In this document: piece after piece, positions 1,562 to 17,097 of the stretch
Numbering within the stretch: the first letter of the stretch is position 1
Layout of the letters: the number at the start of each line of letters is the position of its first letter
DNA from: a virus
Lineage: Duplodnaviria; Heunggongvirae; Uroviricota; Caudoviricetes
Virus record (IMG/VR): IMGVR_UViG_3300028298_000002
Length of the DNA stretch: 64,000 nt
Strand: one strand, 5' to 3'
The notes under the pieces: generated by a model
What the model was told of the DNA's origin: nothing
The model's input: the letters and a program-made list of their open reading frames with translations, nothing else
Database searches by the model: none
Program-made: the position numbers and the translations under genes

Positions 1562-1606
1562 TTGTTTTTATTTATAAATTTATTTCAACATCCTTATGAA
1601 CATCTT

Positions 1607-2029
1607 TTAAGCTACCTTATCAACACCTTTACGCATATAAGTTGTTCGTAACCCCATTTTTTCATATGTAATCCCATTAATCGTAATTTCATAATCATTC
1701 AAAAAACGTAGCGACCTGCCTAATGCATCTTCAACTTCTTCGTGCGTTAGGACATCTGGCAGCCTTCCGCCACCAGCCATTTCAGTATGTGTATTTGATT
1801 TTTTTTGAAGACCGCAATCGATGGCTCTACCACCTGTGCTTTGATTGATTTTATTGAGTTCTTCACAATGCAGTAGAACAGCATTTTCGTTGATAATTAC
1901 TTCATTTCCGCCAAGTATCACTTGACGACCACCAGCACCACCAACCACAGCTGGTATGCCTTTTCCACCTTCTTTATCAGTTGGGCCGACTAAAAGTCCA
2001 CCTTTTGTTCCATCTGAAGTTACTTTCAT
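1607..2029 (-). CDS. hypothetical Gly-rich protein (140 aa)
   Basis: ORF with GG-rich repeats (GGLLVGPTDKEGGKGIPAVVGGAGG). Co-oriented with neighbours. Confidence 0.5.
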   Translation of the reverse strand: MKVTSDGTKGGLLVGPTDKEGGKGIPAVVGGAGGRQVILGGNEVIINENAVLLHCEELNKINQSTGGRAIDCGLQKKSNTHTEMAGGGRLPDVLTHEEVEDALGRSLRFLNDYEITINGITYEKMGLRTTYMRKGVDKVA

Positions 2030-2146
2030 TTTGAGTAGTAGATATAATTTTTCAAAGATACTATTTTTTTATTTAAAAAAAAATCCTACATTAGCCAAGA
2101 TTCATAGCCATATGAATTTCTTGTTTTGATGGGTTTAAAACAACGC

Positions 2147-2179
2147 AAAAAGCCCCTTCGTTCTGAAGGGGCTTTTTTT
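2147..2179. terminator. rho-independent terminator, bidirectional hairpin
   Basis: AAAAAGCCCCTTcgttctgAAGGGGCTTTTTTT. Perfect GC-rich 8-bp stem flanked by an A-run and a T-run, downstream of the minus-strand gene 2245..3432. Confidence 0.65.
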
Positions 2180-2244
2180 AGGAAATGTGATTAATCACCG
2201 GAACAGAAGGCATCCACGAACATCTCGTAGCACTACGCCATTTC

Positions 2245-3432
2245 CTAATTTCCTACTACATCTTCCATACTTATACCACTATTGTTAGTGCTTTCAGAAG
2301 CTTCGCTTTTTATTTCTACGGCTACTGGTGTAGTTTTTAGAACTTCTTCCATACTAACCACTGCTGCCTCTTTCTGTTCAGGTTTAGGTGCTTCAGCCGT
2401 TTTATGAAGAACGGCTCCTGGTCCCCTACTTTGACGTTCTTTGTGTTCAGCGAGCTCCTTTTCATCTTGTTCTTTTTTGAACTGCTTAAATGTTTCAAGT
2501 TGGTCATCCATTTTCGCTTTCAACCCTACACAGTTTACAACCCCTTGCAAAAGATGACCACCAAGCGCAATCATTAAAGTTACCATAGGCGAAGGAGCAA
2601 TTCCCTTTTCTTGAAGAACCATAATTAATGGACCACGTATCTGTTCCTTCATTTCATCTGTAACCTTGAATGCGTCCTCAACTTCTTTATTGTAATTCAG
2701 GAACTGTTGTCTAACAGTCAGTTTGCCAGTAGCGTCTTGGTCGATAATCATTGATAAACGTAGAATCCCATCTTTATCAAGGATTTCCATTTTATTCATT
2801 TTTACTGAACAGAATCCAGTAAAAGCCATTTGATACAACTGCCCATAGTTTGTCAAGATAACATCAGCAAACATTTCAATCTGTTCCTTTTGCTGTGTTG
2901 GGTTCATTTTGTTGAAATCGTCCACCAACGGCTTATCCTTGTCTTTATCAGCTTCGGGATCTGGCGTAGTACTTCCATTGATTACCGGTTCAGCAAAATC
3001 TCTTTGCGGTGGTGGTGGCGGTGGCAAGTTATCGCCACTAAGGTTATTAACCGTTGGTGGCGGACCAGTTGCAGCTCTATTCGCATCACTTTCGTTTTCG
3101 ATGATGCTTTCGCGGAAACGATCATGTCCAGACGGCTTCACGTAATTCGGATCTTCGGTATCGACCTGTCTTGCATCGCCAGTATTGATATCAAATGCTG
3201 GTTTTTCTTCCGTAGTAGTTGTTCCAGCACCTTTACCCAGCGTTGAAGTTTCTATTTCATTTTCAAGTTCGGAAATGGTAAATCCACCCGTTTTGTCTTC
3301 TACTTTTGGGGGATTTTTTGTTTCCGAAAGAATATTCGCATCTTCAATAGGTTCGCCATTAGGCCCCTTTCCTTCAGCTAATAAATCCGCGATTCTTCTA
3401 CGCTCTTGTTCTTGTTTGGTCGGTCGTGCCAT
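2245..3432 (-). CDS. charged modular protein, paralog family member (N-terminal MARPTKQEQERRRIADLLAEGKGPNGEP motif, poly-Pro tract, conserved central domain shared with 10940..11722)
   Basis: ORF. The central ~150 aa (EQIEMFADVILTNYGQLYQMAFTGFCSVKMNKMEILDKDGILRLSMII...) aligns with 10940..11722. The N-terminal motif recurs inside 43934..44947. E/K-rich ends. Confidence 0.65.
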   Translation of the reverse strand: MARPTKQEQERRRIADLLAEGKGPNGEPIEDANILSETKNPPKVEDKTGGFTISELENEIETSTLGKGAGTTTTEEKPAFDINTGDARQVDTEDPNYVKPSGHDRFRESIIENESDANRAATGPPPTVNNLSGDNLPPPPPPQRDFAEPVINGSTTPDPEADKDKDKPLVDDFNKMNPTQQKEQIEMFADVILTNYGQLYQMAFTGFCSVKMNKMEILDKDGILRLSMIIDQDATGKLTVRQQFLNYNKEVEDAFKVTDEMKEQIRGPLIMVLQEKGIAPSPMVTLMIALGGHLLQGVVNCVGLKAKMDDQLETFKQFKKEQDEKELAEHKERQSRGPGAVLHKTAEAPKPEQKEAAVVSMEEVLKTTPVAVEIKSEASESTNNSGISMEDVVGN

Positions 3433-3437
3433 CTTAT

Positions 3438-3893
3438 TTATTTTTTATTTTTCTTTTGAATTTTACTTACTACGTTTTCTAATACTTTTTCTGTTCTATC
3501 AATAACTACTTTGTCAAATTTGTTTTTTGAATCAAGATCCCGAAATTCGCATAGGGCTCGTCTGACAGAGCGAACATTGAACACCTGGTGCTTGATATTT
3601 ATTTCGTACACCAGGCTATCATACAACTTTCTGTTATCAAATTTTGTCAGCTTACTTACAATAACGATAATTGTATTTCTTGCTAAAACCACTTCCCCTC
3701 TTACGTTCTGCTGAAACAAATCTTCCATCGTGTACTTCCCTCCCCATTCTTTGATTACCATAGAAATAGTCGTACTAATAATAACTGGCGGTGGAGCATA
3801 CACTTCCGTCTGAGCTTTCTTCAGCAGATCCAAAGCGTTTTTAGTGCCTATCTTTTTAACAGATTTTATTATTTCGAAAAATTCGTCCTCCAT
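3438..3893 (-). CDS. hypothetical protein (151 aa)
   Basis: ORF packed between 2245..3432 and 3895..4473. Confidence 0.5.
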   Translation of the reverse strand: MEDEFFEIIKSVKKIGTKNALDLLKKAQTEVYAPPPVIISTTISMVIKEWGGKYTMEDLFQQNVRGEVVLARNTIIVIVSKLTKFDNRKLYDSLVYEINIKHQVFNVRSVRRALCEFRDLDSKNKFDKVVIDRTEKVLENVVSKIQKKNKK

Positions 3894-3894
3894 C

Positions 3895-4473
3895 TTAAAG
3901 TATGCACCAATCGTTTGACAACATATCTGTTTGTGAAGCTAACCAGCCGTTCACAATGCTTCCATCAGCTGCTTTCATACATAGGTAGGCTGTGAATTCT
4001 ACATTCAATGATTCAACAACAAGCTTCCCGTATTCGTCTGGTGAATTTTTTTTCTCGAACCATTTTTTTACAGAATCAGGGAGGGATTTTATTTTTGAAA
4101 TTTGTTCATAGTGGATGCTATCTTTTGGACGCAGAAACACAAACATTCCTTTACCATTCCACCCTTCACGAGCAATTAAATTTCCCATCTTAACAGCTTC
4201 TAAAGCTGAACCAAAGGGTAATCCTTTTGTCATTGGTCTTGTTGGTGTCATTAGTTGGTATTCTCCCGCCAATTCCAAATTGTCTTCGAAATATTTTTTC
4301 GCTACATACCACTTATCATCGTGATTCTTAGGATTTCTTGCAATATACCCACCTTCCAATGTTGGTAGTGCTTTGTCAGGTTCTGATACACTGATTCCAG
4401 CCATATCTTCACCTAAAACATAAGGTCGCATTTCTGATAACCCTTTTCTTTTGTACTGTTTAAATTCGCTCAT
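3895..4473 (-). CDS. DUF2829-like domain protein (Tad2-family-like candidate)
   Basis: Central segment FGSALEAVKMGNLIAREGWNGKGMFVFL matches my memory of the DUF2829 signature (ALxxLKxGKKVAR-GWNGK). CTAACTAACTA motif directly upstream of the ATG. Confidence 0.45.
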   Translation of the reverse strand: MSEFKQYKRKGLSEMRPYVLGEDMAGISVSEPDKALPTLEGGYIARNPKNHDDKWYVAKKYFEDNLELAGEYQLMTPTRPMTKGLPFGSALEAVKMGNLIAREGWNGKGMFVFLRPKDSIHYEQISKIKSLPDSVKKWFEKKNSPDEYGKLVVESLNVEFTAYLCMKAADGSIVNGWLASQTDMLSNDWCIL

Positions 4474-4620
4474 AGTTAGTTAGTTTTGTTTGTTATTTTA
4501 AATTATAAATTTCATTGATGCACATTCTTACTTCGTCAATCGTAAGACCATATCTTTCGGCTAATGGTTCAAAGCCTGGCAAACAATAGTTATTCGCCTT
4601 TGCTTTTCTTAAATATTCTT

Positions 4621-4944
4621 TTAATTCTTCCATTTGATAAATGCTAAAATTACTATCGATGCGTAAAAAATTGTACAAGACAACTGATCAAAAAATTCAG
4701 CTTTTAATTTATCCCTTACGAAATGATAATGGTCTTTTTTGTCCGACAACTTTTCTTCCTCAGTCATAGCATCAGCTATGGCTTGACACTTTTCACAAGT
4801 GCATTCCATATTCATTTCGCTAGGACAAAATCCTTCGCGAACAAATTCTCTGTACACGCAGTAGGCATTGTGTAATTCCGATAAGTAGAAATAAACAATC
4901 CGGATTCCAGAAAGAATAATTAATATGTAGATAACCTTTTCCAT
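4621..4944 (-). CDS. hypothetical small membrane protein with Cys-rich region
   Basis: ORF with an N-terminal hydrophobic helix (VIYILIILSGIRIVYFYL) and a CxC...C cluster. Confidence 0.4.
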   Translation of the reverse strand: MEKVIYILIILSGIRIVYFYLSELHNAYCVYREFVREGFCPSEMNMECTCEKCQAIADAMTEEEKLSDKKDHYHFVRDKLKAEFFDQLSCTIFYASIVILAFIKWKN

Positions 4945-5315
4945 TACGCTTCTTGTTTTGCTAATTGTTTTGCTTTTTCTTTTTCCAACACGATTTTCAC
5001 TTGACGCTCAAATTCGCCTTTATTCAGACTTAAATTTCTGTTGGTGCTGTTCACCTTTCTGCACAGCTGCTTCCATTCACGATTAATCGTATCGAACGCA
5101 AGTTGCGAATCCATATCAGATTTATATTTCCTAGAAAAAAATGTTTGCAAATAATCCGCCATCACCTGCGTGTACTTGTCCATTTCTTTCTGAGTTTGTT
5201 TTCCGTGTGCTTTGAGTTTATCATCAACAGCAGTTGCTAATCTTTCGTTCACTACTGGAACAATGAAGTCCTTTGAAAACAAACCTCTTAACCATTTTCT
5301 AAATTTTTTCCACAT
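4944..5315 (-). CDS. hypothetical protein (123 aa)
   Basis: ORF. The start ATGA overlaps the neighbouring stop. Confidence 0.5.
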   Translation of the reverse strand: MWKKFRKWLRGLFSKDFIVPVVNERLATAVDDKLKAHGKQTQKEMDKYTQVMADYLQTFFSRKYKSDMDSQLAFDTINREWKQLCRKVNSTNRNLSLNKGEFERQVKIVLEKEKAKQLAKQEA

Positions 5316-5456
5316 AATTTTATTTTTTTTATTTATTTAATGCCGTTCAAAAGTACCGCGCGATAGTTACACCCTTTGAACCAACTTGTATGGCTTATCA
5401 TCCAGTCCAAGACACCCTCACCTAAGTAACTTTGGGTATTTTATGGTTTATACTAT

Positions 5457-5936
5457 TTATCTTATATCTAAATTTTGCTTTTTCAAATAATTGAAATACA
5501 TTTCTTCAAAATCTTGGTAATCATCCACCACAAATCTGGAAGAACCATTGAAATAAAGAATCAACACACCAACTACTTTAATTTGTTTTACTGGCGGCTC
5601 AAATTGAGGTCCGAAATCTGGCTGAAAAGAATCTTCTACTTCTACCGTAGCATTTTCATCTATAACAGCTGGAATGCTTGGCCCAAAACTTCTGCGTGGT
5701 CGTGGTCGTGCTTTCATCTTTTCCACTTCTTCCAAATAAGCTGGATATTTTTCTTCATCCAAAACATTTACTATAAGAGTTTTTTCAGAAATATCAACTA
5801 TGCTACGAAGATTGATAATGCACTTTTTGTAAGTGATTGTATCTTCTTTTTTCTCGAAATTATGTGATTGCAAAATATCAATCAATTTCGTTTGGTGATA
5901 GTCAGCTTCCGTTGGAAGTTCGATTATGTTTTTCAT
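5457..5936 (-). CDS. hypothetical protein (159 aa)
   Basis: ORF co-oriented in the array. Confidence 0.5.
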   Translation of the reverse strand: MKNIIELPTEADYHQTKLIDILQSHNFEKKEDTITYKKCIINLRSIVDISEKTLIVNVLDEEKYPAYLEEVEKMKARPRPRRSFGPSIPAVIDENATVEVEDSFQPDFGPQFEPPVKQIKVVGVLILYFNGSSRFVVDDYQDFEEMYFNYLKKQNLDIR

Positions 5937-6154
5937 AGTGTTTCTATTATTTTATCAGTTTCAAACTCATATTTTTTTCCTTTCACATCTTTATAGGTAT
6001 TCGCATCAATTATCCTTTGCATCTTGACAGAACTACCCCCATTTCCATTTGGTCTTGTATGTGTCATAAAAAAGGGTCTAGCTAGAGGCCAAATTTTTTC
6101 CCATTGGTCTAAAGTAATGGTACTATAATTTATTTTTTCTAAAATATCTTCCAT
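5933..6154 (-). CDS. hypothetical protein (73 aa)
   Basis: ORF with 4-nt overlaps to both neighbours. Confidence 0.4.
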   Translation of the reverse strand: MEDILEKINYSTITLDQWEKIWPLARPFFMTHTRPNGNGGSSVKMQRIIDANTYKDVKGKKYEFETDKIIETL

Positions 6155-6924
6155 TATTTTTTTGGATAGATATAAATTAACCCGCGTTTGATTTCAGTAC
6201 TTGTCGCATCACTATTGTAGTGGTAGTCATACCCATCTTCGCCATAAATATCATCGATGTAAGACTTTATGTTCACAAATGAAATATCTACTCCTTCATA
6301 ATGGTCAAAGCCTAATTTCGGTTCATCTGGAACAAGAAAATCGTGGATAGCAATTACTGGTTTTAGTCCTGACGCTTTGATAATTTTCAATTCATCAAAA
6401 ATTGGTAAGGTATTCCAATGGCTGTCGATGAAGATGAACACAGAAGATTCGTCTTCCCCAAGTGCTTCGGATGTTTTGATGCATTTATTCAACACTTCAG
6501 ATAATCGATCAACTGTACTGCCTAGATAAAATTCAATGTTAGTCAATCCAGTGCATCGTTCTATGGCAAATTCTAAAAATGTTTTGTTGATTTCAATGCC
6601 TAATACTCTTTCGAAATTTTCACCGAAGAATTTAGTTGTTCCGCCAACACATGTACCTAATTCTACGGCTGCTTTAACTTTAAACTTTTCTTTCAGCTTC
6701 AAAAATTCTTCAGCTACGAAATGATCGTTGTTGAACGGGCTCGACTGGTGTGGCATCAATACTGGTTCCGACACCGATAGCGATGGATCTGGAGTGTTTT
6801 GTGTTCCAGTTCTGGTATCAATCACTGGATTTATACCAGGCGATGCATTTACTTTCGAATTCGCTGGATCAGGAATTCTGTTTTCGATTCTGGGTTCGCC
6901 AGATGGGTTTCTTGGATCTTTCAT
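6154..6924 (-). CDS. class I SAM-dependent methyltransferase (TylF/MycF/CmcI-like O-methyltransferase fold) carrying N-terminal FDPRNPSGE-type tag
   Basis: N-terminus MKDPRNPSGEPRIENRIP, then a P/S/T/N-rich linker. SAM-binding glycine motif VELGTCVGGTTKFF and acidic IFIDSHWN typical of macrocin-O-MTase-like enzymes. Confidence 0.6.
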   Translation of the reverse strand: MKDPRNPSGEPRIENRIPDPANSKVNASPGINPVIDTRTGTQNTPDPSLSVSEPVLMPHQSSPFNNDHFVAEEFLKLKEKFKVKAAVELGTCVGGTTKFFGENFERVLGIEINKTFLEFAIERCTGLTNIEFYLGSTVDRLSEVLNKCIKTSEALGEDESSVFIFIDSHWNTLPIFDELKIIKASGLKPVIAIHDFLVPDEPKLGFDHYEGVDISFVNIKSYIDDIYGEDGYDYHYNSDATSTEIKRGLIYIYPKK

Positions 6925-6928
6925 ATTT

Positions 6929-6939
6929 TAGTTAGTTAG
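6929..6939 (-). promoter_or_regulatory. CTAACTAACTA start-proximal motif (coding-strand sense), 4 nt upstream of ATG of 6154..6924
   Basis: Plus strand reads tagttagttag immediately after the start-codon complement 'cat' at 6922-6924. Confidence 0.5.
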
Positions 6940-7068
6940 ATTATTAGTTTATGTCTTTTATCTTATCGTAACAGACCTTACATCCTGTTCCATTACAATT
7001 TGTGCATTCTTTTACTATTTTCGTATGCTTCAAATACTTTTTTTGAGTTGATTTACTATTAACGAGAA

Positions 7069-7275
7069 TTAATTCAATTTTTTCTGGGTAATTGGAATCT
7101 CCATTAGGCTACATTTAGTAATTATAATCTTTCCAGTGGGAGTTGTTCGTGGCCCTGAATAAACAGCATAATCCACAATATTTTTAACAAATAAATTTGT
7201 AATTTCTTTGTTAAGACATTCAAACTCTTCTTCTGAAACAGTATCGCCATTTTTAAAGTCAAGTAAATTCTTCAT
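7069..7275 (-). CDS. hypothetical protein (68 aa)
   Basis: ORF. 4-nt overlap with the upstream gene. Confidence 0.4.
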   Translation of the reverse strand: MKNLLDFKNGDTVSEEEFECLNKEITNLFVKNIVDYAVYSGPRTTPTGKIIITKCSLMEIPITQKKLN

Positions 7276-7667
7276 GAGGTTAGGTTTTTATACTCATCAA
7301 ACTTTATTCTATTTTCTTCATTATAATCACAAGGTTGTGGCTGCGTCTTAGCGAACACAAACCATTCTTTTGCTAAGTCTAATCGGTACATCGTTTCAGC
7401 TGCTTTATGTTCTGAACAAACTGGATGAAATGTTTTAATTGAAAAACTTTGAAGTTCACCTTCGCTCAAACTTTTTTCGCAGATGGAACATCTTTTCAAA
7501 TGGGCTGGATAGTCCGTTATTAAGCCCAATTCCATCTTTGCAATTTCTGGAATCATATAATGTGCAAACGAACGATGTTCTTCGCAAACCACTCCCCCAT
7601 CATAAGGGGTTTTTAAGTTCTGAGCTTTGCCCGTTAATTGCTTATCGCAAATACTACATTCTTCCAT
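7272..7667 (-). CDS. Cys-rich (zinc-binding) hypothetical protein
   Basis: ORF with CxxC...C...H and CxxC...C pairs (CSICDK...CEEH, CSICEK...CSEH). Confidence 0.5.
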   Translation of the reverse strand: MEECSICDKQLTGKAQNLKTPYDGGVVCEEHRSFAHYMIPEIAKMELGLITDYPAHLKRCSICEKSLSEGELQSFSIKTFHPVCSEHKAAETMYRLDLAKEWFVFAKTQPQPCDYNEENRIKFDEYKNLTS

Positions 7668-7870
7668 TATTTTACGTCTCTTAAAATGTCAATAATTTCC
7701 ATTGCCGTTTCTTTACTTAGTCGCATAGGGTGTTCACGACCATCACGATCGGTCAATAACATAATAGTTACTTTTTTTCCATCTTCGATTTCTGTATCGA
7801 AGTTCAGCCCAGTTAATGAATCTGGCGTTGTAGATTTTACAACTCTGTTATCTATTCTATTGTTCCCCAT
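7667..7870 (-). CDS. hypothetical protein (67 aa)
   Basis: ORF. Its start overlaps the neighbour's stop. Confidence 0.4.
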   Translation of the reverse strand: MGNNRIDNRVVKSTTPDSLTGLNFDTEIEDGKKVTIMLLTDRDGREHPMRLSKETAMEIIDILRDVK

Positions 7871-7906
7871 ATTATATACAATTACATTTAATGTCTATAC
7901 ACGAAT

Positions 7907-8245
7907 TTAATTTTCACTTCCAAATTCATTCCTGAAGGCTTCGTTGTCTTCATTCACCTTATTGTTAATTATTGAACCCGCAGCCATAGATGATTCTCTT
8001 AATCCTTCAAGGATTTCTGGACTAGAATCAACCGCTTTTTCCATTTCTGAAATTTTAGAAAGGGATTCAATATCAATATGTTTAGATAGTTCTTTTTCTA
8101 TCTTTATAAATATTGGAAGAAACATTTCGGCTACACCTTTATCTGCATTTTCGGCACTATGAATAGCTACATTCATCTTAGCTACCGCTGTAAGAATTTT
8201 AATTTCTTCGCCAGTTAATTCTAGTGTTATTGTTTTTGTTTCCAT
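7907..8245 (-). CDS. hypothetical acidic protein (112 aa)
   Basis: ORF. Confidence 0.45.
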   Translation of the reverse strand: METKTITLELTGEEIKILTAVAKMNVAIHSAENADKGVAEMFLPIFIKIEKELSKHIDIESLSKISEMEKAVDSSPEILEGLRESSMAAGSIINNKVNEDNEAFRNEFGSEN

Positions 8246-8572
8246 TTAATTTTCTGAATTATCTTTCCCTATAATTTCCTTTGCACTTACAATTTCCATA
8301 TTGCCAACTTGGTTTTCTATGAACGATTGGAAAATAAAATTTTCCGCTTGTTTCTTGTGAAAGATTGCTGCACCGACTGGTCCTTCAGCTATAACATAAA
8401 CAACTTCTTTTTCCGTTTCTTTACTTGGATCCGGATGAACGAAAGCGTTTTGATTATCCTTTAAACGAATAAAATATGCATCATTACCGATTACATTTCT
8501 CCCAGCAAGTGGAATCTTTCCAGCTTTCCAATCTTGGTTTTCTTGCTTTGCTTTTATTTGACCTCTTCCCAT
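8246..8572 (-). CDS. possible GroES/gp31-like co-chaperonin
   Basis: 108 aa. KIPLAGRNVIG...VHPDPSKETEKEVVYVIAEGPVG resembles the GroES pattern (I.PL.DRV.v...e.ktagGI.lPdsakek...g.VvAvG.G). Weak match. Confidence 0.35.
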   Translation of the reverse strand: MGRGQIKAKQENQDWKAGKIPLAGRNVIGNDAYFIRLKDNQNAFVHPDPSKETEKEVVYVIAEGPVGAAIFHKKQAENFIFQSFIENQVGNMEIVSAKEIIGKDNSEN

Positions 8573-9333
8573 ATGCCTGTATTATTATGTTTGTGATATT
8601 GAGCCGGCTGATACGAAATACCATAATCAGCTTGTGGCACGTCTTTACTATTGATAAATAACATATTCGTTGTTGCTATTTGATACACTAATGTGTAGCC
8701 ATAGCTTTCCAAAACGCGTTTGAAGGCCATAAAACTTGCTCCAAAATAATTATCGTTTCCCCATGTGTGCGTTGGATTATACTTAATCGTAAGACTTTCG
8801 TTTGCTGGTAAAGTCCCGTTGAATTCGTTATAAATTACGCGTGGAAAATATCCACCATCCAAAATCTTTTTCAATATCCAGAGATCGTTGCCATCCAAAT
8901 CGATGCTCAAAAAGTCAAAGATGAAGGGCACTTCGTACTTTGCAAATAATTCACAAATGTTTTCAGCTGTGATAAATTCCTTCTTAATCATTTCGTTTCC
9001 GGAATTATCGCCATCCATCAGCAATCCTTTCCAGCCTTTATCCAAAAGGTATTTCGAATTACTCATTCCTTGATTAAGACCATTTGCTCCAAAGTCCACC
9101 AAGAACTTTGTATCAGTTCCAATATTTTCAAACACGTAGTCGAAAATATTTTCTTCGCTAAATTGTGCGTAGCGTTTTACTAGTTGAACATCTTTAATTC
9201 TTCTTACCCAACCTTCGCCACTTAGTGGTTGTGTTGGCGTAGCACTTGATGGCACACTAGCTACTTTAGGTGGTGCTACTGCCGAATTAAGATTTCTATT
9301 TTCTCCCGAAGGATCTCTTGGATCAAATACCAT
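8554..9333 (-). CDS. FkbM-family-like methyltransferase carrying N-terminal FDPRDPSGE tag
   Basis: N-terminus MVFDPRDPSGENRNLN, then a P/S/A/T linker. FLVDFGANGLNQG...LLMDGD resembles the FkbM methyltransferase core (DxGAN). Confidence 0.55.
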   Translation of the reverse strand: MVFDPRDPSGENRNLNSAVAPPKVASVPSSATPTQPLSGEGWVRRIKDVQLVKRYAQFSEENIFDYVFENIGTDTKFLVDFGANGLNQGMSNSKYLLDKGWKGLLMDGDNSGNEMIKKEFITAENICELFAKYEVPFIFDFLSIDLDGNDLWILKKILDGGYFPRVIYNEFNGTLPANESLTIKYNPTHTWGNDNYFGASFMAFKRVLESYGYTLVYQIATTNMLFINSKDVPQADYGISYQPAQYHKHNNTGIWEEVK

Positions 9334-9655
9334 TTTCTATTGTATTAATTTTTTTTCTGATTTCGTTTAATAATCCCAACGCTTGTGAATGTTCAGATTC
9401 TAATCTTTCTACTCTTTTTTCTTGTAGCGGTAATCTCGCTTTTAACCAACTTTTTTCATCGAAATAAAAAAACAAATTTCCTTCCCCTTCGTGAAAATTA
9501 TAATCTACTCCTACTTTCAAATCATAATCTTTATTTTTTATTCCAACCATTTTCCCATCGTTAGACAAAAAACTAGGCGTGAATTGATCTGTTCCGCCAG
9601 TCGATTTGTTAAGAACATAAATCTTGCTTTCTAATCCAAGTGCCGATGCTTTCAT
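9323..9655 (-). CDS. hypothetical protein (110 aa)
   Basis: ORF. Confidence 0.45.
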   Translation of the reverse strand: MKASALGLESKIYVLNKSTGGTDQFTPSFLSNDGKMVGIKNKDYDLKVGVDYNFHEGEGNLFFYFDEKSWLKARLPLQEKRVERLESEHSQALGLLNEIRKKINTIENGI

Positions 9656-9829
9656 TATTTTAAATTTGTTAGTACGACTACTTTATATTTTGTGTCGAAA
9701 TTATGCTGAACGCTTGTAACGTAATAATGCTTTTCTTCTAAAATAATTGATTCACCTACCGAAATAGCATAGTTTCCGTTTTCTTCGTGAATTTGTTTTG
9801 TCCCGAAATAGAATAGTGTTTGCTTCATT

Positions 9830-10939
9830 TTATTTTATTTTATCAGTTATAACTTTTAAATTTTCAGCGAAATGATGCCAGGTGAAATTCTGTCTTGCCC
9901 TTCTACATCCTTCACGAGCAATATTTTTTCTTAATTCTTCGTTTTCCAAATAGAACTTAATTTTATTTATCAGTTCATCAATAGAGGTAAACACATCCAG
10001 GTCTAATCCGATATCAAAGTCTTCTTCTAATTCAGGGTAAACATGTGTCAAGCAAAATGCACCAGTTCCCAAGATTCTAAACAACCGGTCCGAAGCATAC
10101 TTGCTTCTTTCAAAGTGCGACAATGAAATCGCTATCTTACAACTTCTGTATGCCAGGCCTTCTTCACCGAAATTCGTGATCAACCCATTCGCTATTTTTT
10201 GTCCGTTCTGCATTTGGTTGCCCCAGTTAGCACCATACACACCGAACTTATCACCAAATACGCTTTTCAAAGTTCTTACCATCGATTCGCGATAGCTTGA
10301 CAATGGGTACTGGCAGTGGTAGTTGCTACCCATAAAGATGATTTCTGGATAAACACCTACTGGTCCTTCAGGATTAAAGTTCAACGAATCAAATCCTACT
10401 TGTAAAAAATCTGCTTTTACGCCTTCTTTACGGAGCTTTTCCACATCTTCTACATTAGTGAACAACGTCAAGTCGATATGATCACCTAAGTCGATATAAT
10501 GGGCAGGAAGTTCTTCCCGGACATCACCGCACCAATTCACCAGCTTTGCTTTTTTATTCATTGCAGCAAGTGCCGTATGCGATATGATTCCTGGTCGTTG
10601 CAAATGCATAAACACGATATCAGGCTTGAATTCATTGAATGTTTTTAACAGAATAGCATCAAATGGACTGTGTTGCCCTATCGATGCACCACGTCCAACC
10701 GCTACTGGAATTCTATTATCCATACGTGCTTCCCCAGATGGATTTCTTACATCAAAGCCGTGAGCCTTATGCATTCTGTTCATCACAGATTGTTGATGTG
10801 CCAATTCTGGCTGATATGGTTCAGGATATTTTACTTCCGTCCAGTCCAAGTGCTTACACTCAAACACGGAATCCAATCCGTTTTGCATATCAGGGTTTCC
10901 TTGTCCCATCATTATATGTAGAAGCTTTTGCTTTTTCAT
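9830..10939 (-). CDS. glycosyltransferase, CgeB/Glyco_trans_1_2-like, with FDVRNPSGE tag. Likely true start at internal ATG 10774 or 10783.
   Basis: C-terminal half (EEGLAYRSCKIAISLSHFERSKYASDRLFRILGTGAFCLTHVYPELEEDFDIGLDLDVFTSIDELINKIKFYLENEELRKNIAREG) matches the GT-B group-1/CgeB-like C-domain. The tag sits at residue 62 of the longest ORF, whereas it is at residues 3-5 in three sibling genes. Confidence 0.55.
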   Translation of the reverse strand: MKKQKLLHIMMGQGNPDMQNGLDSVFECKHLDWTEVKYPEPYQPELAHQQSVMNRMHKAHGFDVRNPSGEARMDNRIPVAVGRGASIGQHSPFDAILLKTFNEFKPDIVFMHLQRPGIISHTALAAMNKKAKLVNWCGDVREELPAHYIDLGDHIDLTLFTNVEDVEKLRKEGVKADFLQVGFDSLNFNPEGPVGVYPEIIFMGSNYHCQYPLSSYRESMVRTLKSVFGDKFGVYGANWGNQMQNGQKIANGLITNFGEEGLAYRSCKIAISLSHFERSKYASDRLFRILGTGAFCLTHVYPELEEDFDIGLDLDVFTSIDELINKIKFYLENEELRKNIAREGCRRARQNFTWHHFAENLKVITDKIK

Positions 10940-11722
10940 CTAATTTGAAGGGGTAAAAAATGAAGTGAAAATATCAAATGGGATATCAAATTTATTTTTT
11001 TGGCTATTAATCAAAACAACCACTTTTGTTTCCTTATAGAAATCGATTGATTGCAATATGCATTCTTCGCCTTGCACGATTGTATATTTGGTATCCTTAT
11101 TTTTAATGGTCGTTTGTGCGATGTATTTTTTATCCCAAGATTTGTTTTCGGATGATTTAATTGGGGCTTCCGATTCGGCTTCTTTTTCTTGCTTTCTAAA
11201 TCCCTTAAATGTTTCTATGTATTCTGTGATTTGATTTTTTAGCTGTAATGATCTCACTATTCCAGTAATCAATTGCTGTGCAACTAGCATTAATGCTTTT
11301 GCCTTTGGCGAAAGAATACCACCTTGTTCCGCAAGGACAATTAGTAATAACTCTCGCAATTCCTCTTTCATTTCTGGAGTTAGTGTGAACTCTATCTCTG
11401 CTTCTTTGTTATGATTAATAAAAACATCGCTAACAGTTAATTTGCCATCTTCTTTATCATTTACCACTACCATTGATAAACGAATATCTCCATCTTTGTC
11501 AAGGAGTTCCATCTTGTTCATCTTTATTGAACAAATCCCAGTAAAGGCCATATGGTATAATTCACCATAAGATTTTAATATTTCGTCAGCAAAAAGTTCG
11601 ATTCTTTCCTTCTTTTCTTCTTCCGATAATACTTTTTCTTCATCCACTGATTCAACTACCTTTCTTGGTCGTCCTGGCTTACGCTTTCCTTCATCTGCGA
11701 TTGTTTTCTTCTTTTGGCTCAT
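10940..11722 (-). CDS. paralog of central domain of 2245..3432, with basic N-terminus containing AT-hook-like GRPRK
   Basis: ERIELFADEILKSYGELYHMAFTGICSIKMNKMELLDKDGDIRLSMVVV... aligns residue-by-residue with 2245..3432. Confidence 0.6.
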   Translation of the reverse strand: MSQKKKTIADEGKRKPGRPRKVVESVDEEKVLSEEEKKERIELFADEILKSYGELYHMAFTGICSIKMNKMELLDKDGDIRLSMVVVNDKEDGKLTVSDVFINHNKEAEIEFTLTPEMKEELRELLLIVLAEQGGILSPKAKALMLVAQQLITGIVRSLQLKNQITEYIETFKGFRKQEKEAESEAPIKSSENKSWDKKYIAQTTIKNKDTKYTIVQGEECILQSIDFYKETKVVVLINSQKNKFDIPFDIFTSFFTPSN

Positions 11723-11730
11723 CTTATTTT

Positions 11731-12564
11731 CTAATTTGTTGGTTGCAACACTTTATAAGGCGGTGCAATGCCTCTTTCTTTTTGTTCTCCTTTTTCATTC
11801 AGGTAATTTCTTACCATAACAACGTGCTGATGATATGTTTTCAAATTCAAGCTCGGATTTAAAACAGCATAACCTGCAATATCCAATTTATATGCTATTG
11901 AATTATCACATCCGGGACTTCCCAATGAAAATGGGGCATCTATTCCTTTTTCTACTGCACCATTGAATATCCATACATCTTGCGAATCCACCCGATTAAA
12001 AAATTCTACGGATCCATCAGCTTTGATATCCCATCTAGTCAATGCCAACACACTTTTTTCTTTTGTCTTGAAATAAGCAACACTTTTTTCCAATGTTTCT
12101 TTTGGGATAACGATGTCCAAATTCGCAATCACATTAATGTTATTCGGAGCATTGCAAAGGTTCGTTAAATCAAAGTATTCCAAGTATGTTGCTCGTTTGC
12201 TTGTTAGCACTGGCGTTAATTCAAAGTTCACTAACCCTTGAATATCTTCAAACGAATCAAAGTCTGCGATAACAAAAATATTATCAAAGTGCTTTGTATT
12301 TTCAACAACACATTTCACCAATTCCTTTTGTCTTTCAATATTTTTATCGATGTAATAGTTGATGAACAAATTATATTTCATCTGCATTCCATCTTCGATA
12401 ATCATATCATTCACCAAGCGAGGCTTCGCCACTACTGGATTACTTCGGTCCTCCCCAGATGGATTTCTTGGATCAAAAACTTTCGACACAGCTGGTGCTA
12501 CGTGCGTTGTTCTTCCTATCTCAATTCTAGGTTCGCCTGAAGGATTACGTGGATCAAAAACCAT
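11731..12564 (-). CDS. putative nucleotide-sugar transferase (GT-A-like) with two tandem N-terminal FDPRNPSGE tags
   Basis: MVFDPRNPSGEPRIEIGRTTHVAPAVSKVFDPRNPSGEDRSNP, followed by a domain with a DxD-like IADFDSFED. Product assignment is tentative. Confidence 0.5.
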   Translation of the reverse strand: MVFDPRNPSGEPRIEIGRTTHVAPAVSKVFDPRNPSGEDRSNPVVAKPRLVNDMIIEDGMQMKYNLFINYYIDKNIERQKELVKCVVENTKHFDNIFVIADFDSFEDIQGLVNFELTPVLTSKRATYLEYFDLTNLCNAPNNINVIANLDIVIPKETLEKSVAYFKTKEKSVLALTRWDIKADGSVEFFNRVDSQDVWIFNGAVEKGIDAPFSLGSPGCDNSIAYKLDIAGYAVLNPSLNLKTYHQHVVMVRNYLNEKGEQKERGIAPPYKVLQPTN

Positions 12565-12729
12565 TTCTTAATTATTTGCTTTACCTAAATATTCAAAATG
12601 AACTGCAAAACTATATTTGCCATAATCTATACGATTTCCAAATGAAGCTTCAGCACAGGTTATCCGAACTTGTCTTGGTCGAACATAACCTTTCTTTAAT
12701 TTCTTTTTAATTTTTCTTGGAATACGCAT

Positions 12730-12990
12730 CTATCCGAAATCTAAAAATTCTAAAAACTTCTGTAAGCCTTTTACTTCAGCTTTACTTAGTTCTAAGCTCT
12801 TTGTTTTTTTTCCGCCATCGTGTTCAACATCTACAAAAAGGAAAAGACTTCCATCCTTATGTTCCGTTAGCGAACCAGTGAAGGAAATTTCTTTCTTAAT
12901 AAGTGATTTTGCTGTCGCCTTCACCTTGTCCTTTATTTTCTTCGGAACTTTTTTAGCTCGATCCTTGATGCTGTTTTTTTTAGTTGCCAT
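12730..12990 (-). CDS. hypothetical basic protein (86 aa)
   Basis: ORF. K-rich. Confidence 0.4.
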   Translation of the reverse strand: MATKKNSIKDRAKKVPKKIKDKVKATAKSLIKKEISFTGSLTEHKDGSLFLFVDVEHDGGKKTKSLELSKAEVKGLQKFLEFLDFG

Positions 12991-13807
12991 AGTAACGCAT
13001 TAATTCGTTTATACAAAATTTGTAAGATGCATCAGCATCGTTATTAAATCTATTCAAAGCTATTCGTAAAATATCTGGTTTATTTTCTTTTAAATAAATT
13101 AAACACGCAACCCAATAATCTTTCTTACTGAATGCACCATAAATTAAATCCTCCTGATAGTTTACATACAAATAAAATCTTTTATTTGTTTTAAATTTAT
13201 AAGCTATCAAAGCTTGTGCAAGTATTAGCACATCAGGGTTACTAACTTTAGCACTAACTGTTTCGGCACGTTCGTTAATCATATGTAATCGAAGCAATCC
13301 AGCGTTTGCCCATATAACAGGGCGTATCACGCGGAAACTTTGATAATGTATGATCACATCCAAATTCGAATGTCTGTTGGAAACCAATGCTGATACAACT
13401 TTTACGCTGTTTGGATTAATCATATATGTTGAAATATCATCTAGCACTAAAAGTCCATTAGCAAAAGTGTCGAGGATTTTGTGAAGTATTTCTACCTTTT
13501 TATCTACATCTTTAACAATCACATTATTTTCATCTAATGCTAATATTCTTCTAACTTCAGTTTTTCCATTATATGTCCAATCTCTTAAATCTCTTATGCC
13601 TAAAGTTTTTGCAGTCCAATTAACCTTGAACTTGCTTCGTAGCTTGGCATCAGAATATTCTGCTTGGGTATCATATATCAAAACTTTCCTACCCTTCCAT
13701 CCTTCTGCTGATGGCTGTATGTAATTTGCTATTTCTTCATTGGCTGTTGTGTGGGTTTTTCCCATCCCTTTTGCAGCAATAACCAATTGTATCATTGCCT
13801 CTCTCAT
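12980..13807 (-). CDS. P-loop NTPase (Walker A/B ATPase)
   Basis: Walker A AAKGMGKTHT. Walker B GLLVLDDIS. Confidence 0.6.
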   Translation of the reverse strand: MREAMIQLVIAAKGMGKTHTTANEEIANYIQPSAEGWKGRKVLIYDTQAEYSDAKLRSKFKVNWTAKTLGIRDLRDWTYNGKTEVRRILALDENNVIVKDVDKKVEILHKILDTFANGLLVLDDISTYMINPNSVKVVSALVSNRHSNLDVIIHYQSFRVIRPVIWANAGLLRLHMINERAETVSAKVSNPDVLILAQALIAYKFKTNKRFYLYVNYQEDLIYGAFSKKDYWVACLIYLKENKPDILRIALNRFNNDADASYKFCINELMRYYGN

Positions 13808-14670
13808 TGTTCTACAATTAAATTATTTTCTTCTACATAATATTCCCATTTGAATCCACCAGCAGTTTTTTCTTTCCCTCTACAAACAGCGGAAATATTA
13901 TTTTTATGAATACCTAATCCCCTTTCCGCATCAGACATTGAATCCCAAACTTTTATTGATTCATTTGTAATAAGATCTATTTGAACAATTTTTTTGCTAC
14001 GTGAATTGTCTTTTCCGAATTTTCCATATAGGGGATGTTTTTCTCCTGTTGCATAAATTCTATTAGGGGCAACTTTTCCCTTTCTATCTAAACTCATTTT
14101 TAGCTTAGTCTTTTCGGTATGCCCTCTTTTAGCCATACCATTTTTTTCTCCAGCTATTTTAGGATTTGGTTTTCCTAATTTAGATGCACTTTGTTTTGCT
14201 TTTGTTTCTGGACTAACTATTCTTCCTGTTAAAGCAATAGACTGCTTTCTTTTTGTTTCTTCTGAACGTAATGGTCTTTTTTTTCCCTTCTGAGCCACAC
14301 TCATTTTTATTTTAGATTCTTCAGAATGCTTTCCATAACTACCGCCTTCTTTTAAATTCATTCCAAATTCCTTGTTACGCGTATTGAATTTTGCAATGAA
14401 GAATATTTCCCTTTCGTTTAATTCTAGTTGAGTTAATTCTTCAGTAGCCCTTTCTTGAATTACTTCTAGGATTTCAAAAGTATGATTTTCGGGACCATAT
14501 TTTTGAAAGGAACTATAAAGCGATGATTGTCCTTTACATTTTCCATACTTGTAATCTTGCTTCCGTTTGTTGATGTCCCAAGACTGCCCCACATTCTTTC
14601 TACCAGATGGAGAAGTAATAAGATAAATTCCTATTAAGATCGGCCCTAGATGATTTGGTCTTTTTCCCAT
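13804..14670 (-). CDS. GIY-YIG homing endonuclease (Seg/I-TevI-like) with NUMOD3 repeats and C-terminal NUMOD1/IENR1 HTH
   Basis: GIYLITSPSGRKNVGQS (GIY...YIG-type). Repeated HSEESKIKMS / TEKTKLKMS NUMOD3 units. C-terminus IKVWDSMSDAERGLGIHKNNISAVCRGKEKTAGGFKWEY. Confidence 0.85.
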   Translation of the reverse strand: MGKRPNHLGPILIGIYLITSPSGRKNVGQSWDINKRKQDYKYGKCKGQSSLYSSFQKYGPENHTFEILEVIQERATEELTQLELNEREIFFIAKFNTRNKEFGMNLKEGGSYGKHSEESKIKMSVAQKGKKRPLRSEETKRKQSIALTGRIVSPETKAKQSASKLGKPNPKIAGEKNGMAKRGHTEKTKLKMSLDRKGKVAPNRIYATGEKHPLYGKFGKDNSRSKKIVQIDLITNESIKVWDSMSDAERGLGIHKNNISAVCRGKEKTAGGFKWEYYVEENNLIVEQ

Positions 14671-14972
14671 TACATCAATTCAATTAAATATTTAACTAAA
14701 ACAATGGAAACCAACGCTACATTGGTTAATAAGCGGATGATATATATTCTTCGGTTATCGAATAAGTAAATCGAAGTGATTAACCAGAAGAAAGAAATTA
14801 ATAAATAGATTCCAGAAGAAGCGCTGATGATACCCGTCAAAACGAATGTGGTAGTGATTGTTAGGGAGATTGCGTTGTATAAAGTAGGGCGGATTATTTG
14901 CGGAAAAACAGCGGCATCGTTGATTCGCTGTATAGAAAGGGCAATATAGACTAGTCCGAAAAAATAAAACAT
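14670..14972 (-). CDS. small integral membrane protein (3 predicted TM helices)
   Basis: ORF with three long hydrophobic segments. Confidence 0.5.
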   Translation of the reverse strand: MFYFFGLVYIALSIQRINDAAVFPQIIRPTLYNAISLTITTTFVLTGIISASSGIYLLISFFWLITSIYLFDNRRIYIIRLLTNVALVSIVLVKYLIELM

Positions 14973-14986
14973 GCCTTAATAATTAA

Positions 14987-15000
14987 TAGTTAGTTAGTTA
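14987..15000 (-). promoter_or_regulatory. CTAACTAACTA-type motif upstream of 14670..14972 (15-nt spacer)
   Basis: Plus strand reads tagttagttagtta. Confidence 0.4.
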
Positions 15001-15058
15001 TAAGGGCAATGATAACAAAATAATCAACAAATCAAAATAAATTCAACTTTATTTTTTT

Positions 15059-15523
15059 TTAACCCTTGTGGGATTGGTTTTGCGAGTTTTCACGATTTTT
15101 GCGAAGTGCGATTATTTTGCTGATTAAGCCAGAATTGTCGTTCATCAGGTTCTTAATCAGTTTGTTTTTTGCAAGGATTGTTTGATTAAGGGTGATGACT
15201 TCCTGATCTCTGCGAACGAACTTTGTAGCTTCTTGGCTGTTTCGGTCTCTTAAAACCTTGTTTTCAGCGGTTAGCGTTTTGGTTTCGGAAGTAAGGCGTT
15301 TGATTTCGGCTTTTAAAGAATCGATTTCTTTAGTGGCTTCTTTAATCTTGGTAACAAGGTGGGGTTCTTTGCTTGTTAAGTGCCACCCTGAACAGCTTTG
15401 GCAGTAGTATGAACGAATAGGAACGCTGGAACGTGTGGATGTTTTTTTGATTCGTTCAACATCCTTGTTTGCTTCAGCTTCATTTGCATACTTGGTCTTG
15501 TGGCATTCCTTGCTATTGTCCAT
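15059..15523 (-). CDS. zinc-ribbon plus coiled-coil protein
   Basis: CxxC (CQSCSGWH) at the N-terminus, then a heptad-rich segment. Confidence 0.5.
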   Translation of the reverse strand: MDNSKECHKTKYANEAEANKDVERIKKTSTRSSVPIRSYYCQSCSGWHLTSKEPHLVTKIKEATKEIDSLKAEIKRLTSETKTLTAENKVLRDRNSQEATKFVRRDQEVITLNQTILAKNKLIKNLMNDNSGLISKIIALRKNRENSQNQSHKG

Positions 15524-16070
15524 TTATGGAAGGGATTTCCTTTTGATCATAGTTATAATTCATTCTAACGGTTTCATAAGCACGAAGTCCAGCCATCTTC
15601 ACTTCTGGAAGGTGCTGTTCAAGGATTACCTTTAAATAATCAATGAATGTTTCCCGGCTAGAATAAAGGAATCCCGTTTTCTTGTCCACTATGGTTTCAG
15701 AATAAGGGTATTGGTAAAGTGTGATCAGCGGAACGCCAAATAATGCCATTTCCAAGAACTTGTTGATGTTTTCAGAAGTTTCGTTGTACACACCTGGAAT
15801 TAATGGGACAAATAGCATATCAAATCCAACACTTTCTTTTAAAGCATGGATGTGCTTAAAATAATGGTTGATAGAAACTGGTTTTGTGAATTCGGTTTCG
15901 GGAGGTAATTCTACCCCATCAGTTCCAATAAATAATAATCGGACCGCATTACCAAATATCTTATTAATTAATCGAAACTCATTTTCATAATAATTAATAT
16001 CGGCCTGGTTAAATCCATTACAGATAACTCCGAGAACCAATGCTGGTTTAGTTTCCGTTTTTGTTTCCAT
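15513..16070 (-). CDS. glycosyltransferase group-1 C-terminal-domain-like protein (short)
   Basis: FLEMALFGVPLITLYQYPYSETIVDKKTGFLY resembles the GT-B donor-binding motif (E..A.G.PvI....g...e.v.dg.tGfl). Confidence 0.4.
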   Translation of the reverse strand: METKTETKPALVLGVICNGFNQADINYYENEFRLINKIFGNAVRLLFIGTDGVELPPETEFTKPVSINHYFKHIHALKESVGFDMLFVPLIPGVYNETSENINKFLEMALFGVPLITLYQYPYSETIVDKKTGFLYSSRETFIDYLKVILEQHLPEVKMAGLRAYETVRMNYNYDQKEIPSINGQ

Positions 16071-16368
16071 TAATTTTGTATTTAGTATTTAATAGTTCTG
16101 ATAACTCATTCCAACTTTTAATTCCAGTATTTTTAGTTTCCAAAAAACGGGTTTTTAATAGGTCCCGCACCATCGGATGTTTCTTTGAATATAATTCCAA
16201 AGAGGTAAAAAGGCGGATTGAAATGTCCGGATTTTCAACCATCACTTGTTTGATGGTTAAATTCTTTCGGATCATAATTCCGACTTCATCTGGATGCTTG
16301 TCAAGGTATTTTTTGACCTGCTCCAGTTCTTTAGGTGTTAGTGATTTTAGGAAGATTTTGATATTCAT
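16048..16368 (-). CDS. hypothetical protein (106 aa)
   Basis: ORF. Confidence 0.45.
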   Translation of the reverse strand: MNIKIFLKSLTPKELEQVKKYLDKHPDEVGIMIRKNLTIKQVMVENPDISIRLFTSLELYSKKHPMVRDLLKTRFLETKNTGIKSWNELSELLNTKYKINGNKNGN

Positions 16369-16492
16369 AAAGCTGGTCTTGGTCTTATTCCGTTGATAAT
16401 CTCTAACTTTTCTTGTTCTTTTTTTAGCTTCTGCACCTCCACTTCGTAATCAAAAGGGACTTGGCTGCCTTTGATTACCATCTGCCAATATC

Positions 16493-16888: not shown

Positions 16889-17097
16889 TCTTTCTTTGAT
16901 TTTGAATAACCGCCATTTTTCCCAAATAATGCACCAGCCAAGATATTCAAGGCTAATGCGTGGAAGAAATCGACTTCAGGGAGTCCAAAAATTTGGGGAC
17001 AAGTATAATTCCAAAGCCACATCACCGGAAAGCCTAGAAGACAGGCAATGATGCACATAATAAAAAATCCAGCAACTAAATTTCCGACTGCTTCCAT
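16885..17097 (-). CDS. small membrane protein
   Basis: Two hydrophobic helices. Confidence 0.45.
   Translation of the reverse strand: MEAVGNLVAGFFIMCIIACLLGFPVMWLWNYTCPQIFGLPEVDFFHALALNILAGALFGKNGGYSKSKKE

Follow-up and report, generated by a model that had tools for sequence, protein, structure and literature searches.

A short peptide, here called the tag, is shared by the enzymes of a glycan cassette in a 64,000-nucleotide stretch of a Caudoviricetes genome (IMG/VR record IMGVR_UViG_3300028298_000002), the whole of which is referred to below as the window. A sequence-only reading of the window had described the peptide FDPR(N/D)PSGE in four enzymes, doubled in one of them, and this was upheld by the present analysis, in which the core [DN][PV]R[ND]PSGE was found five times in four open reading frames (ORFs) on the minus strand with no other copy in the six frames of the 64 kb. 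When searched as a degenerate DNA pattern the tag gave four matches against 0.00 expected (100 shuffles), the fifth copy having Val for Pro and hence lying outside the pattern. The sharing of this tag by phage glycan enzymes is thus real and robust, and it had not been described before. The explanation favored here, which on the sequence evidence is given an even chance of being correct, is that the tag acts as a short linear docking motif by which the enzymes of one pathway are all brought to a common partner.

The conserved element is longer than first stated, with an extended consensus of approximately [FK]-D-[PVI]-R-N-P-S-G-E-x-R-[IMT]-[ED]-N-R-[IV]-P (an example with its flanks is MVFDPRNPSGEPRIENRIPAP). 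The residues D, R, P, S and G are invariant while the Glu that closed the original nine-residue version is not, most copies reading S-G-E with SGR in three (the second copies of the glycosyltransferase homologs P0006 and P0007, and the homolog P0010). In agreement with the earlier statement that the underlying codons differ at synonymous sites, 32 of the 72 same-residue codon pairs among the tag copies were synonymously different, and because of these differences the sequences indicate that the tag is under purifying selection at the level of the peptide. Conservation at the level of DNA or of translation initiation was also considered and is ruled out by the synonymous differences together with the existence of internal and C-terminal copies (see below). 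The coordinates of the tag copies, of the enzymes that carry them and of the neighboring genes are collected in Table 1.

Table 1. Tagged enzymes, individual tag copies and neighboring genes in the window (GT, glycosyltransferase; SAM, S-adenosylmethionine; aa, amino acids).
Feature	Position	Strand	Remarks
GT-A-fold glycosyltransferase	11731..12564	-	Residues 1-60 disordered with two tags, 61-277 globular; family without a Pfam model
Tag copy 1 of the GT-A protein	12532..12555	-	Core DPRNPSGE, context MVFDPRNPSGEPRIEIG
Tag copy 2 of the GT-A protein	12451..12474	-	SKVFDPRNPSGEDRSNP, 27 residues after copy 1
CgeB-like GT-B (Glyco_trans_1_2)	9830..10939	-	PF13524, 76.4 bits against a cutoff of 25, E 2.9e-21
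Internal tag of the GT-B protein	10706..10756 (core 10730..10753)	-	FDVRNPSGEARMDNRIP, residues 62-78, Asp at residue 63
FkbM-like class I SAM methyltransferase	8554..9333	-	N-terminal tag MVFDPRDPSGENR, linker ~26 aa
Tag core of the FkbM-like methyltransferase	9301..9324	-	DPRDPSGE
Class I SAM methyltransferase	6154..6924	-	N-terminal tag MKDPRNPSGEPRIENRIP, 44-aa linker
Tag of the 6154 methyltransferase	6871..6918 (core 6895..6918)	-	DPRNPSGEPRIENRIP, residues 3-18
P-loop NTPase-like protein, 275 aa, untagged	12980..13807	-	Walker A AAKGMGKT, Walker B LLVLDD; constant first cassette gene
260-aa paralog of the 395-aa protein, untagged	10940..11722	-	48% identity over 158 aa to 2245..3432
395-aa protein	2245..3432	-	Conserved N-terminal peptide, Pro-rich disordered middle, helical domain; conserved cassette neighbor
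s57, 57 aa	9655..9828	-	Next gene downstream of GT-B; 81% identical to the part by which GT-B of L052 is extended at its C-terminus
s110, 110 aa	9323..9655	-	Between GT-B and the FkbM-like methyltransferase; lineage-specific, homologs only in L054 and L052
s123, 123 aa, helical-looking	4944..5315	-	In L001, L054, L002 and L005 (all tag-bearing)

The tag is restricted to a narrow lineage of large phages. An exhaustive HMMER scan of 1.84 billion representatives, taken at 50% identity and searched at E<=1e-3, returned three matches to the tag profile, all of them cassette enzymes. The tag 21-mer had no tblastn match among 50,697 deposited phage genomes and two back-translated tag patterns gave no match in IMG/VR. 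The possibility of a generic host motif was rejected, the 17 matches found in 596 Gb of bacterial and archaeal genomes being equal to the chance estimate (~17); these matches are internal, lie mostly in high-GC DNA and are mutually unrelated, which bears out the expectation that the tag is not a generic feature of host proteins. Mimicry of a host motif was likewise rejected, since the exact 9-mer of a secreted Bacteroidota BNR sialidase lies within its folded N-terminal beta domain. In this BNR-repeat protein of ~533 residues FDPRNPSGE lies at residue 97 and was seen on three Bacteroidota-like contigs (L014, L017 and L033), which was judged a coincidence, though a curious one given the likely host phylum. 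Within the searchable literature no paper was found to contain the peptide and none joins CgeB, FkbM and phage, and to that extent the earlier statement that no phage system has been described with such a tag on glycosyl- or methyltransferases holds.

Profile and fold comparisons of the catalytic domains confirmed the original assignments of a GT-A-like glycosyltransferase, a CgeB-like GT-B and an FkbM-like methyltransferase. The product of 11731..12564 has a GT-A Rossmann-like fold and the alignment of its family reveals invariant N148, D150 (within IANLDI), D196 and D220, which are candidates for the DxD motif that binds metal and nucleotide sugar. Neither this protein nor its 36-member family had a sequence match in Pfam, PHROG, NCBIfam or PDB. 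The double tag of the GT-A protein is kept in P0001-P0007, L052 and L054. In the GT-B protein, for which no real homolog was found among the 50,697 deposited phage genomes, the tag sits in an insertion of ~45 residues, which follows a conserved N-terminal stretch of 37 residues and precedes the remainder of the N-domain. It had been proposed that translation of this protein starts downstream at 10774 or 10783, which is wrong, because the upstream 37 residues (KLLHIMMG..NPDMQ.GL.SVFEC.H.DW) are conserved at the protein level in eight relatives and an independent gene call for the same genome gives a GT-B of 359 residues. The FkbM-like protein has a class I SAM-methyltransferase fold and a family-level match to PF05050. 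In the case of 6154..6924, previously called TylF/CmcI-like, the protein is a class I SAM methyltransferase but the TylF/CmcI label is only faintly suggested: in PDB the family profile matched a PIMT-like protein (1.2e-5) and family-3 O-methyltransferases (2.5e-4) but reached only E 0.04-0.07 for CmcI, with Methyltransf_11 and Methyltransf_25 matched by six of seven family members and RMNT_CmcI by one of the seven (E 0.053). Homologs of this methyltransferase in the related loci L002, L005 and L049 are untagged.

The layout originally described, with the tag followed by a flexible linker and then a globular enzyme, is borne out by AlphaFold2. Disorder was modelled for the GT-A and FkbM-like proteins, in which the predicted local distance difference test score (pLDDT) was 44-60 over residues 1-60 and 44-56 over residues 1-40, respectively, rising above 90 in the domain of each, and no DSSP secondary structure was assigned over either N-terminal segment. 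The linkers had been described as 30-60 residues of low complexity; those beside the tags are 16-44 residues long. In most of them P/S/T/N/A/G/Q make up a fraction of 0.43-0.73, compared with 0.34 for the catalytic domains; the linker that follows the GT-A tags is not enriched (0.35). Identity between orthologs is 85-88% for the tags (63% for those of GT-B, a more divergent set) and 66-89% for the catalytic domains, with the flanking linkers at 22-56% and containing many indels. The tag therefore has the attributes by which short linear motifs are recognized, being a conserved island in fast-evolving flanks, in predicted disorder, with variable position and copy number, and it is carried by four to five enzyme families with one to two copies in each. 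As far as sequences and models can indicate, it appears to behave like a classical short linear motif. The likeness to the linear motifs of eukaryotes and viruses extends to the size of the island (9-17 residues), its independence of position and its gain by several unrelated proteins; linear motifs common to the metabolic enzymes of a bacteriophage itself were not found described in the searchable literature.

The four tagged enzymes had been regarded as otherwise unrelated, which is true of their folds and sequences, but their genes belong to one conserved cassette with the order P-loop protein, GT-A, GT-B, FkbM-like methyltransferase and second methyltransferase. Related loci differ in the extent to which this cassette is tagged. 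In L050 the gene order is the same, the proteins are shorter and there are no tags, with only a short loop in GT-B. In L049, again with shorter untagged proteins in the same order, a degenerate motif (YGFDPLDPAGT) is present solely in the GT-B loop. L002 and L005 carry tags on the two glycosyltransferases only (the short contig L031 is tagged in GT-B), and in the window, L001 and L054 all of the enzymes are tagged, as they are in L052 as far as the contig reaches. The L049 motif may be either ancestral or decayed, neighbor-joining bootstrap support being at most 0.5 in both trees.

The position of the tag varies as well. It is N-terminal in three families, while the GT-B of each of the eight tagged relatives has it in a surface loop formed by an insertion, some loops having a second partial repeat and thus one and a half tags (INPSGEPPVENR, LTPSGEPSIDNR). 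In the GT-A homologs P0010 (ending ...NFDPRNPSGR) and P0011 (ending ...LDPRNPSGESKQ) the tag is C-terminal, and in L001 (10837..12618), where GT-B is fused to an FkbM domain (TIGR01444, E 5e-23), it is placed between both domains. GT-A homologs have two or one N-terminal tags in some cases, a C-terminal tag in two and no tag in most, with 11 carriers among the 37 family proteins retrieved; among the 120 listed FkbM-like homologs there are two carriers, the window's own protein and one close relative. All of the ~30 tag instances, which come from ~79 kb of this genome and the related loci, lie in cassette enzymes. Natural fusions were seen not only between GT-B and FkbM (L001) but between GT-A and an FkbM-like domain (P0027), GT25 and GT-A (P0030), and an FkbM-like domain and PF13524 (P0065), and in pithoviruses structural homologs of this GT-A family are fused to a methyltransferase. 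Such fusions among the cassette enzymes argue, in the manner of a Rosetta stone, that these are functionally linked and act in one pathway.

Since the tag marks exactly the enzymes of one pathway, which are also covalently fused in relatives, a common docking peptide is the most economical explanation. In this docking scheme every cassette enzyme (GT-A, the CgeB-like GT-B and two or three SAM methyltransferases, which would presumably O-methylate the sugars) would display the tag on a disordered linker and each tag would bind the same site on a common partner, such that docking would bring sequential enzymes together into an assembly line for a methylated glycan. The partner would probably be oligomeric, multivalent or repetitive, because the retention of two tags on GT-A and of one and a half in some GT-B loops suggests avidity; a scaffold, the acceptor that is glycosylated or even GT-B could fill this role. 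Binding by the motif, its partner and the acceptor of the glycan are all putative here.

A number of points weigh against docking. Weaker or hidden carriers of the tag outside the cassette could have been missed by the HMMER scan at its threshold and level of clustering, and coverage extends to only ~79 kb of the genome (the 64-kb window with its flanks L056 and L059). No neighboring gene co-varies cleanly with the tag, the 395-aa and 151-aa families and the P-loop protein being present in untagged genomes also, and the correlation of the small proteins s57 and s123 with the tag comes from a tiny sample confounded by relatedness. Use of the tag as a degron, as a site for modification or as a signal for packaging would fit the data equally well. 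The readings of the tag as a regulatory site, as a glycan acceptor or mimic and as a self-associating element, which are weighed below after packaging, have less support than docking.

A virion-packaging or capsid-targeting signal, with the tag docking the enzymes to scaffold, portal or capsid and the prohead protease perhaps cutting after S-G-E, is unlikely. The arrangement of short terminal peptide, linker and cargo matches that of cargo-loading systems and the multivalency (the double tag and the 1.5 repeats of some GT-B loops) would suit a repetitive lattice. Prohead proteases of giant phages such as phiKZ are reported to have the specificity S/A/G-x-E, which S-G-E fits, and the tag resembles the T4 capsid-targeting sequence and the phiKZ-type prohead propeptides in being a short N-terminal peptide common to unrelated phage proteins. 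Large polyvalent-type proteins have been proposed as virion-delivered, and pieces of such a protein are nearby (335..1561 and 1607..2029, with an AAA_34 helicase in L056 and LPD1 in L049). Signals of the T4 and phiKZ type are, however, strictly N-terminal and cleaved off after Glu, whereas the tag is also C-terminal, internal and inter-domain and its Glu is dispensable in three copies: P0010 ends in ...NPSGR without Glu, the Glu is deleted in the second copies of P0006 and P0007, and the set of invariant residues excludes the supposed P1 Glu. The tag of GT-B is internal in every relative, where cleavage would cut the N-domain in two, detaching its conserved ~60 N-terminal residues. The N-terminal propeptide cleaved after S-G-E that the sequence-only reading had in mind is at odds with these copies. 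In addition, it is hard to see what enzymes that depend on SAM and on nucleotide sugars would do within a capsid. No capsid, portal, scaffold, protease, terminase or encapsulin family was detected among the 121 ORFs of the window (Pfam, E<=1e-4), a negative that covers the 64 kb only and by itself does not speak against packaging. The tag may still dock to a component of the virion with no cleavage involved.

Comparison with other targeting peptides gives a similar mixture of likeness and difference. Encapsulin cargo-loading peptides are, like the tag, short conserved terminal peptides joined by a flexible linker to unrelated enzymes, one label serving several cargos. They are usually C-terminal with a small, hydrophobic, Gly-containing consensus, from which the hydrophilic and Pro-rich D-P-R-N-P-S-G-E of the tag differs; no HK97-fold shell gene was found in the 64-kb window and the tag is also found in a surface loop and between fused domains. 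The encapsulation peptides of microcompartments are likewise found at the N- or C-termini of several enzymes of one operon, with a poorly conserved linker, and co-localize a pathway. These peptides are amphipathic alpha-helices of ~18 residues, whereas the tag is Pro/Gly-rich with no DSSP helix over GT-A residues 1-60, and no shell-protein genes were seen.

A shared regulatory site is distinctly unlikely. Here the tag would be recognized as a substrate by a kinase or some other modifying enzyme, or as a degron by a protease adaptor, such that the pathway as a whole is switched on or off or degraded. R-N-P-S fits the minimal basophilic kinase pattern R-x-x-S, the invariant Ser and Arg lie in a disordered and exposed segment, and a tag on all of the pathway enzymes and on nothing else, regardless of position, is compatible with such a role. 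Against this, the Pfam scan detected no kinase or protease family in the window, a conserved span of 9-17 residues, with the second half-motif counted in, exceeds what a simple modification site would usually need, the tandem duplication is easier to account for by avidity than by regulation, and untagged cassettes evidently work without the tag.

It is very unlikely that the tag is itself a glycan acceptor or an acceptor mimic, with the Ser of P-S-G-E glycosylated by the cassette glycosyltransferases or occupying their acceptor site and, as a consequence, the methyltransferases tethered to the glycosyltransferases by substrate mimicry or the enzymes autoglycosylated. An invariant S-G in an exposed disordered peptide would be in keeping with this, as would the observations that the glycosyltransferases are always tagged and the methyltransferases only in one sub-lineage and that the degenerate motif of L049 persists only in the GT-B loop. 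That degenerate copy, however, has Ala for Ser (DPAG), a structural protein with many acceptor motifs should score highly in the profile search, in which only cassette enzymes were found, and we know of no precedent for a tag acting in this way. A homotypic 'sticker', with tags that bind one another or a repeated site and spacers that allow the enzymes to cluster into a condensate, is highly improbable and purely speculative: one to two tags per protein on low-complexity linkers do have a sticker-and-spacer layout, but the valency is low (most proteins are single-tagged) and the motif is hydrophilic and Pro/Gly-rich with one aromatic residue only and no sign of self-complementarity.

The combination of glycosyltransferases and methyltransferases has parallels in other viral glycan systems, where both activities are brought together for a methylated glycan, as in chlorovirus PBCV-1 A064R and the virion-glycosylation genes of mycobacteriophages (in part after PMC12619734). 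In those systems (PBCV-1 A064R, pithovirus and mycobacteriophage) the modules are either covalently joined or unlinked, whereas here they are mostly separate proteins with a common tag. The window also resembles phage DNA sugar-hypermodification clusters in that GT-A and GT-B enzymes and C5 cytosine methyltransferases occur in the genome. Such clusters adjoin a 5mYOX/TET dioxygenase or a ThyS-like hydroxymethylase and are without sugar methyltransferases (Pyle et al., doi 10.1101/2023.12.21.572611). The idea that the sugar is attached to DNA, prompted by a long ThyA homolog and two C5 methylases, was rejected, the Pfam scan of the window having detected no TET/5mYOX dioxygenase family and the ThyA scoring as a true equivalog (TIGR03284, 303 bits against a cutoff of 108). 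The two C5-cytosine DNA methyltransferases (PF00145; 23348..24952 on the minus strand and 54134..55675 on the plus strand, 534 and 513 residues) lie one on each replichore-like arm, and the thymidylate synthase (47289..48419, plus strand) has 376 residues against the 266 positions of the Pfam model, with an insertion of ~110 residues.

Among the neighboring genes (Table 1), the two related proteins 2245..3432 and 10940..11722 had been suggested as partners of the tag. The paralogy is real, but as the family is present in the untagged L049 and L050 it does not co-vary with the tag, and a role as its specific partner is not supported. Homologs of the 395-aa protein are found in L001, L002, L005, L054, L049 and L050 and the protein has no match in Pfam, PHROG or PDB; its 260-aa paralog is in the cassette of this genome only and is not at that position in L001, L002, L005, L049 or L050. 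The 395-aa family has conserved linear elements of its own in the disordered residues ~90-125 (DDPNYIKPSGHDRF...IENESDANKAATG) and at the N-terminus (MARPTKxEQE...AEGKGPNGEPI), which are distinct from the tag despite the superficial resemblance of 'KPSGH'. The P-loop protein, which had no match in Pfam, NCBIfam or PDB, has homologs immediately upstream of the GT-A gene in L001, L006, L052, L049 and L050.

Two small proteins are weak leads to the tag partner. The first, s57, is fused to the C-terminus of GT-B in L052 and occurs only in the window, L001, L052 and L054, which make up the lineage whose tags carry the second half-motif; it had no match in Pfam or PDB and may be a candidate partner or adaptor. 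The second, s123, is encoded in all four of the tag-bearing loci long enough to include its position but not in L049 or L050, a distribution that would suit a candidate partner, and had no family or structure match. The adjacent s110 had no match in Pfam.

Other genes around the cassette were noted in passing. A 185-residue untagged protein (15513..16070, minus strand) has weak matches to GT1-family C-terminal domains (E 0.04-0.1) and 80-89% conservation in L001 and L052; it may be a fragment of another glycosyltransferase or a partner. A GIY-YIG/NUMOD homing endonuclease (13804..14670, minus strand) lies just upstream of the P-loop gene and is not at that position in L001, and in L002 and L049 the cassette region is broken by other homing endonucleases. 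The minus-strand ORFs 335..1561 and 1607..2029, beside the cassette neighborhood, look like pieces of a large polyvalent-type protein, and a 140-residue ORF there matches parts of a 971-residue N6_Mtase/Eco57I protein in L005 and of a protein of 559+ residues in L002. Just outside the window edge, L056 (11695..16203) encodes an AAA_34/Helicase_C_4 protein of 1502 residues, at the same position as the LPD1 protein of L049.

The window is part of a large and highly divergent phage genome of ~35% G+C, with genes on the minus strand to ~39 kb and on the plus strand beyond, and the cassette region has no nucleotide match among the 50,697 deposited phage genomes. The best-conserved protein of the window (36078..38219) shares 54% identity with proteins of phi17:2 and phi4:1, which are Cellulophaga phages, and 67% with one from an uncultured phage of 462 kb, and on the basis of these matches the host is probably a member of the Bacteroidota. 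Consistent with such a host, the regions upstream of genes are A-rich without a Shine-Dalgarno sequence. In the strand-switch region there is a tRNA-Ile with anticodon AAT (38258..38335, minus strand), which is unusual for bacteria and phages, whose tRNA-Ile normally has the anticodon GAT or a modified CAT. The phage, whose window includes a gene for a DnaJ-domain protein, may be akin to the 'moraphages' (PMC12619734). These are large phages of fresh water that have DnaJ/DnaK and a core of four glycosyltransferase families and are predicted to infect Flavobacteriia.

A Tad2-like Thoeris anti-defence domain (3895..4473, minus strand; PF11195, E 1.9e-22) and an Acb2/Tad1 hairpin domain (E 1.5e-5, in one of the ORFs of 1..30256) were matched in the window, and the glycan cassette therefore sits amid counter-defence genes. 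A nicotinamide phosphoribosyltransferase (phrog_448, E 4e-157) and a protein like phosphoribosyl pyrophosphate synthetase (31208..32749 and 34158..35018, both minus strand), together with a NADAR-domain protein (E 2e-45, in one of the ORFs of 30265..64000), look like a set for NAD+ reconstitution and ADP-ribose counter-defence. On the plus strand an 843-residue helicase (55880..58411; ResIII and Helicase_C) has an intein-type insertion (Hom_end_hint, E 1.5e-17, and Hom_end), placed in this ORF by way of the L059 gene table.

Shared address peptides are known from encapsulins, microcompartments, cellulosomes and the internal proteins of T4; to our knowledge none is known on phage glycosylation enzymes, and the biology of linear motifs in phages has barely been explored. 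The series of cassettes, from no tags to tags on two glycosyltransferases and then on every enzyme, appears to show a pathway becoming physically organized by the copying of a label of ~10 residues. It is conceivable, though doubtful, that the tag and its receptor form a previously unrecognized phage peptide-addressing system in which a label of ~9-17 residues was copied onto successive enzymes in recent evolution, loading them onto a phage-built platform (a scaffold, the virion or another viral structure) that would make a methylated glycan. If true, this would be the phage counterpart of encapsulin and microcompartment targeting, with an unrelated peptide and with labels not only at the N-terminus but also in loops and at the C-terminus. 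For synthetic biology, a tag so small and so independent of position might, together with its cognate receptor, provide an orthogonal docking pair for the co-localization of enzymes. For the phages themselves, whose nearest cultured relatives infect Flavobacteriia, finding the partner would identify the scaffold or the acceptor of an uncharacterized phage glycan pathway.

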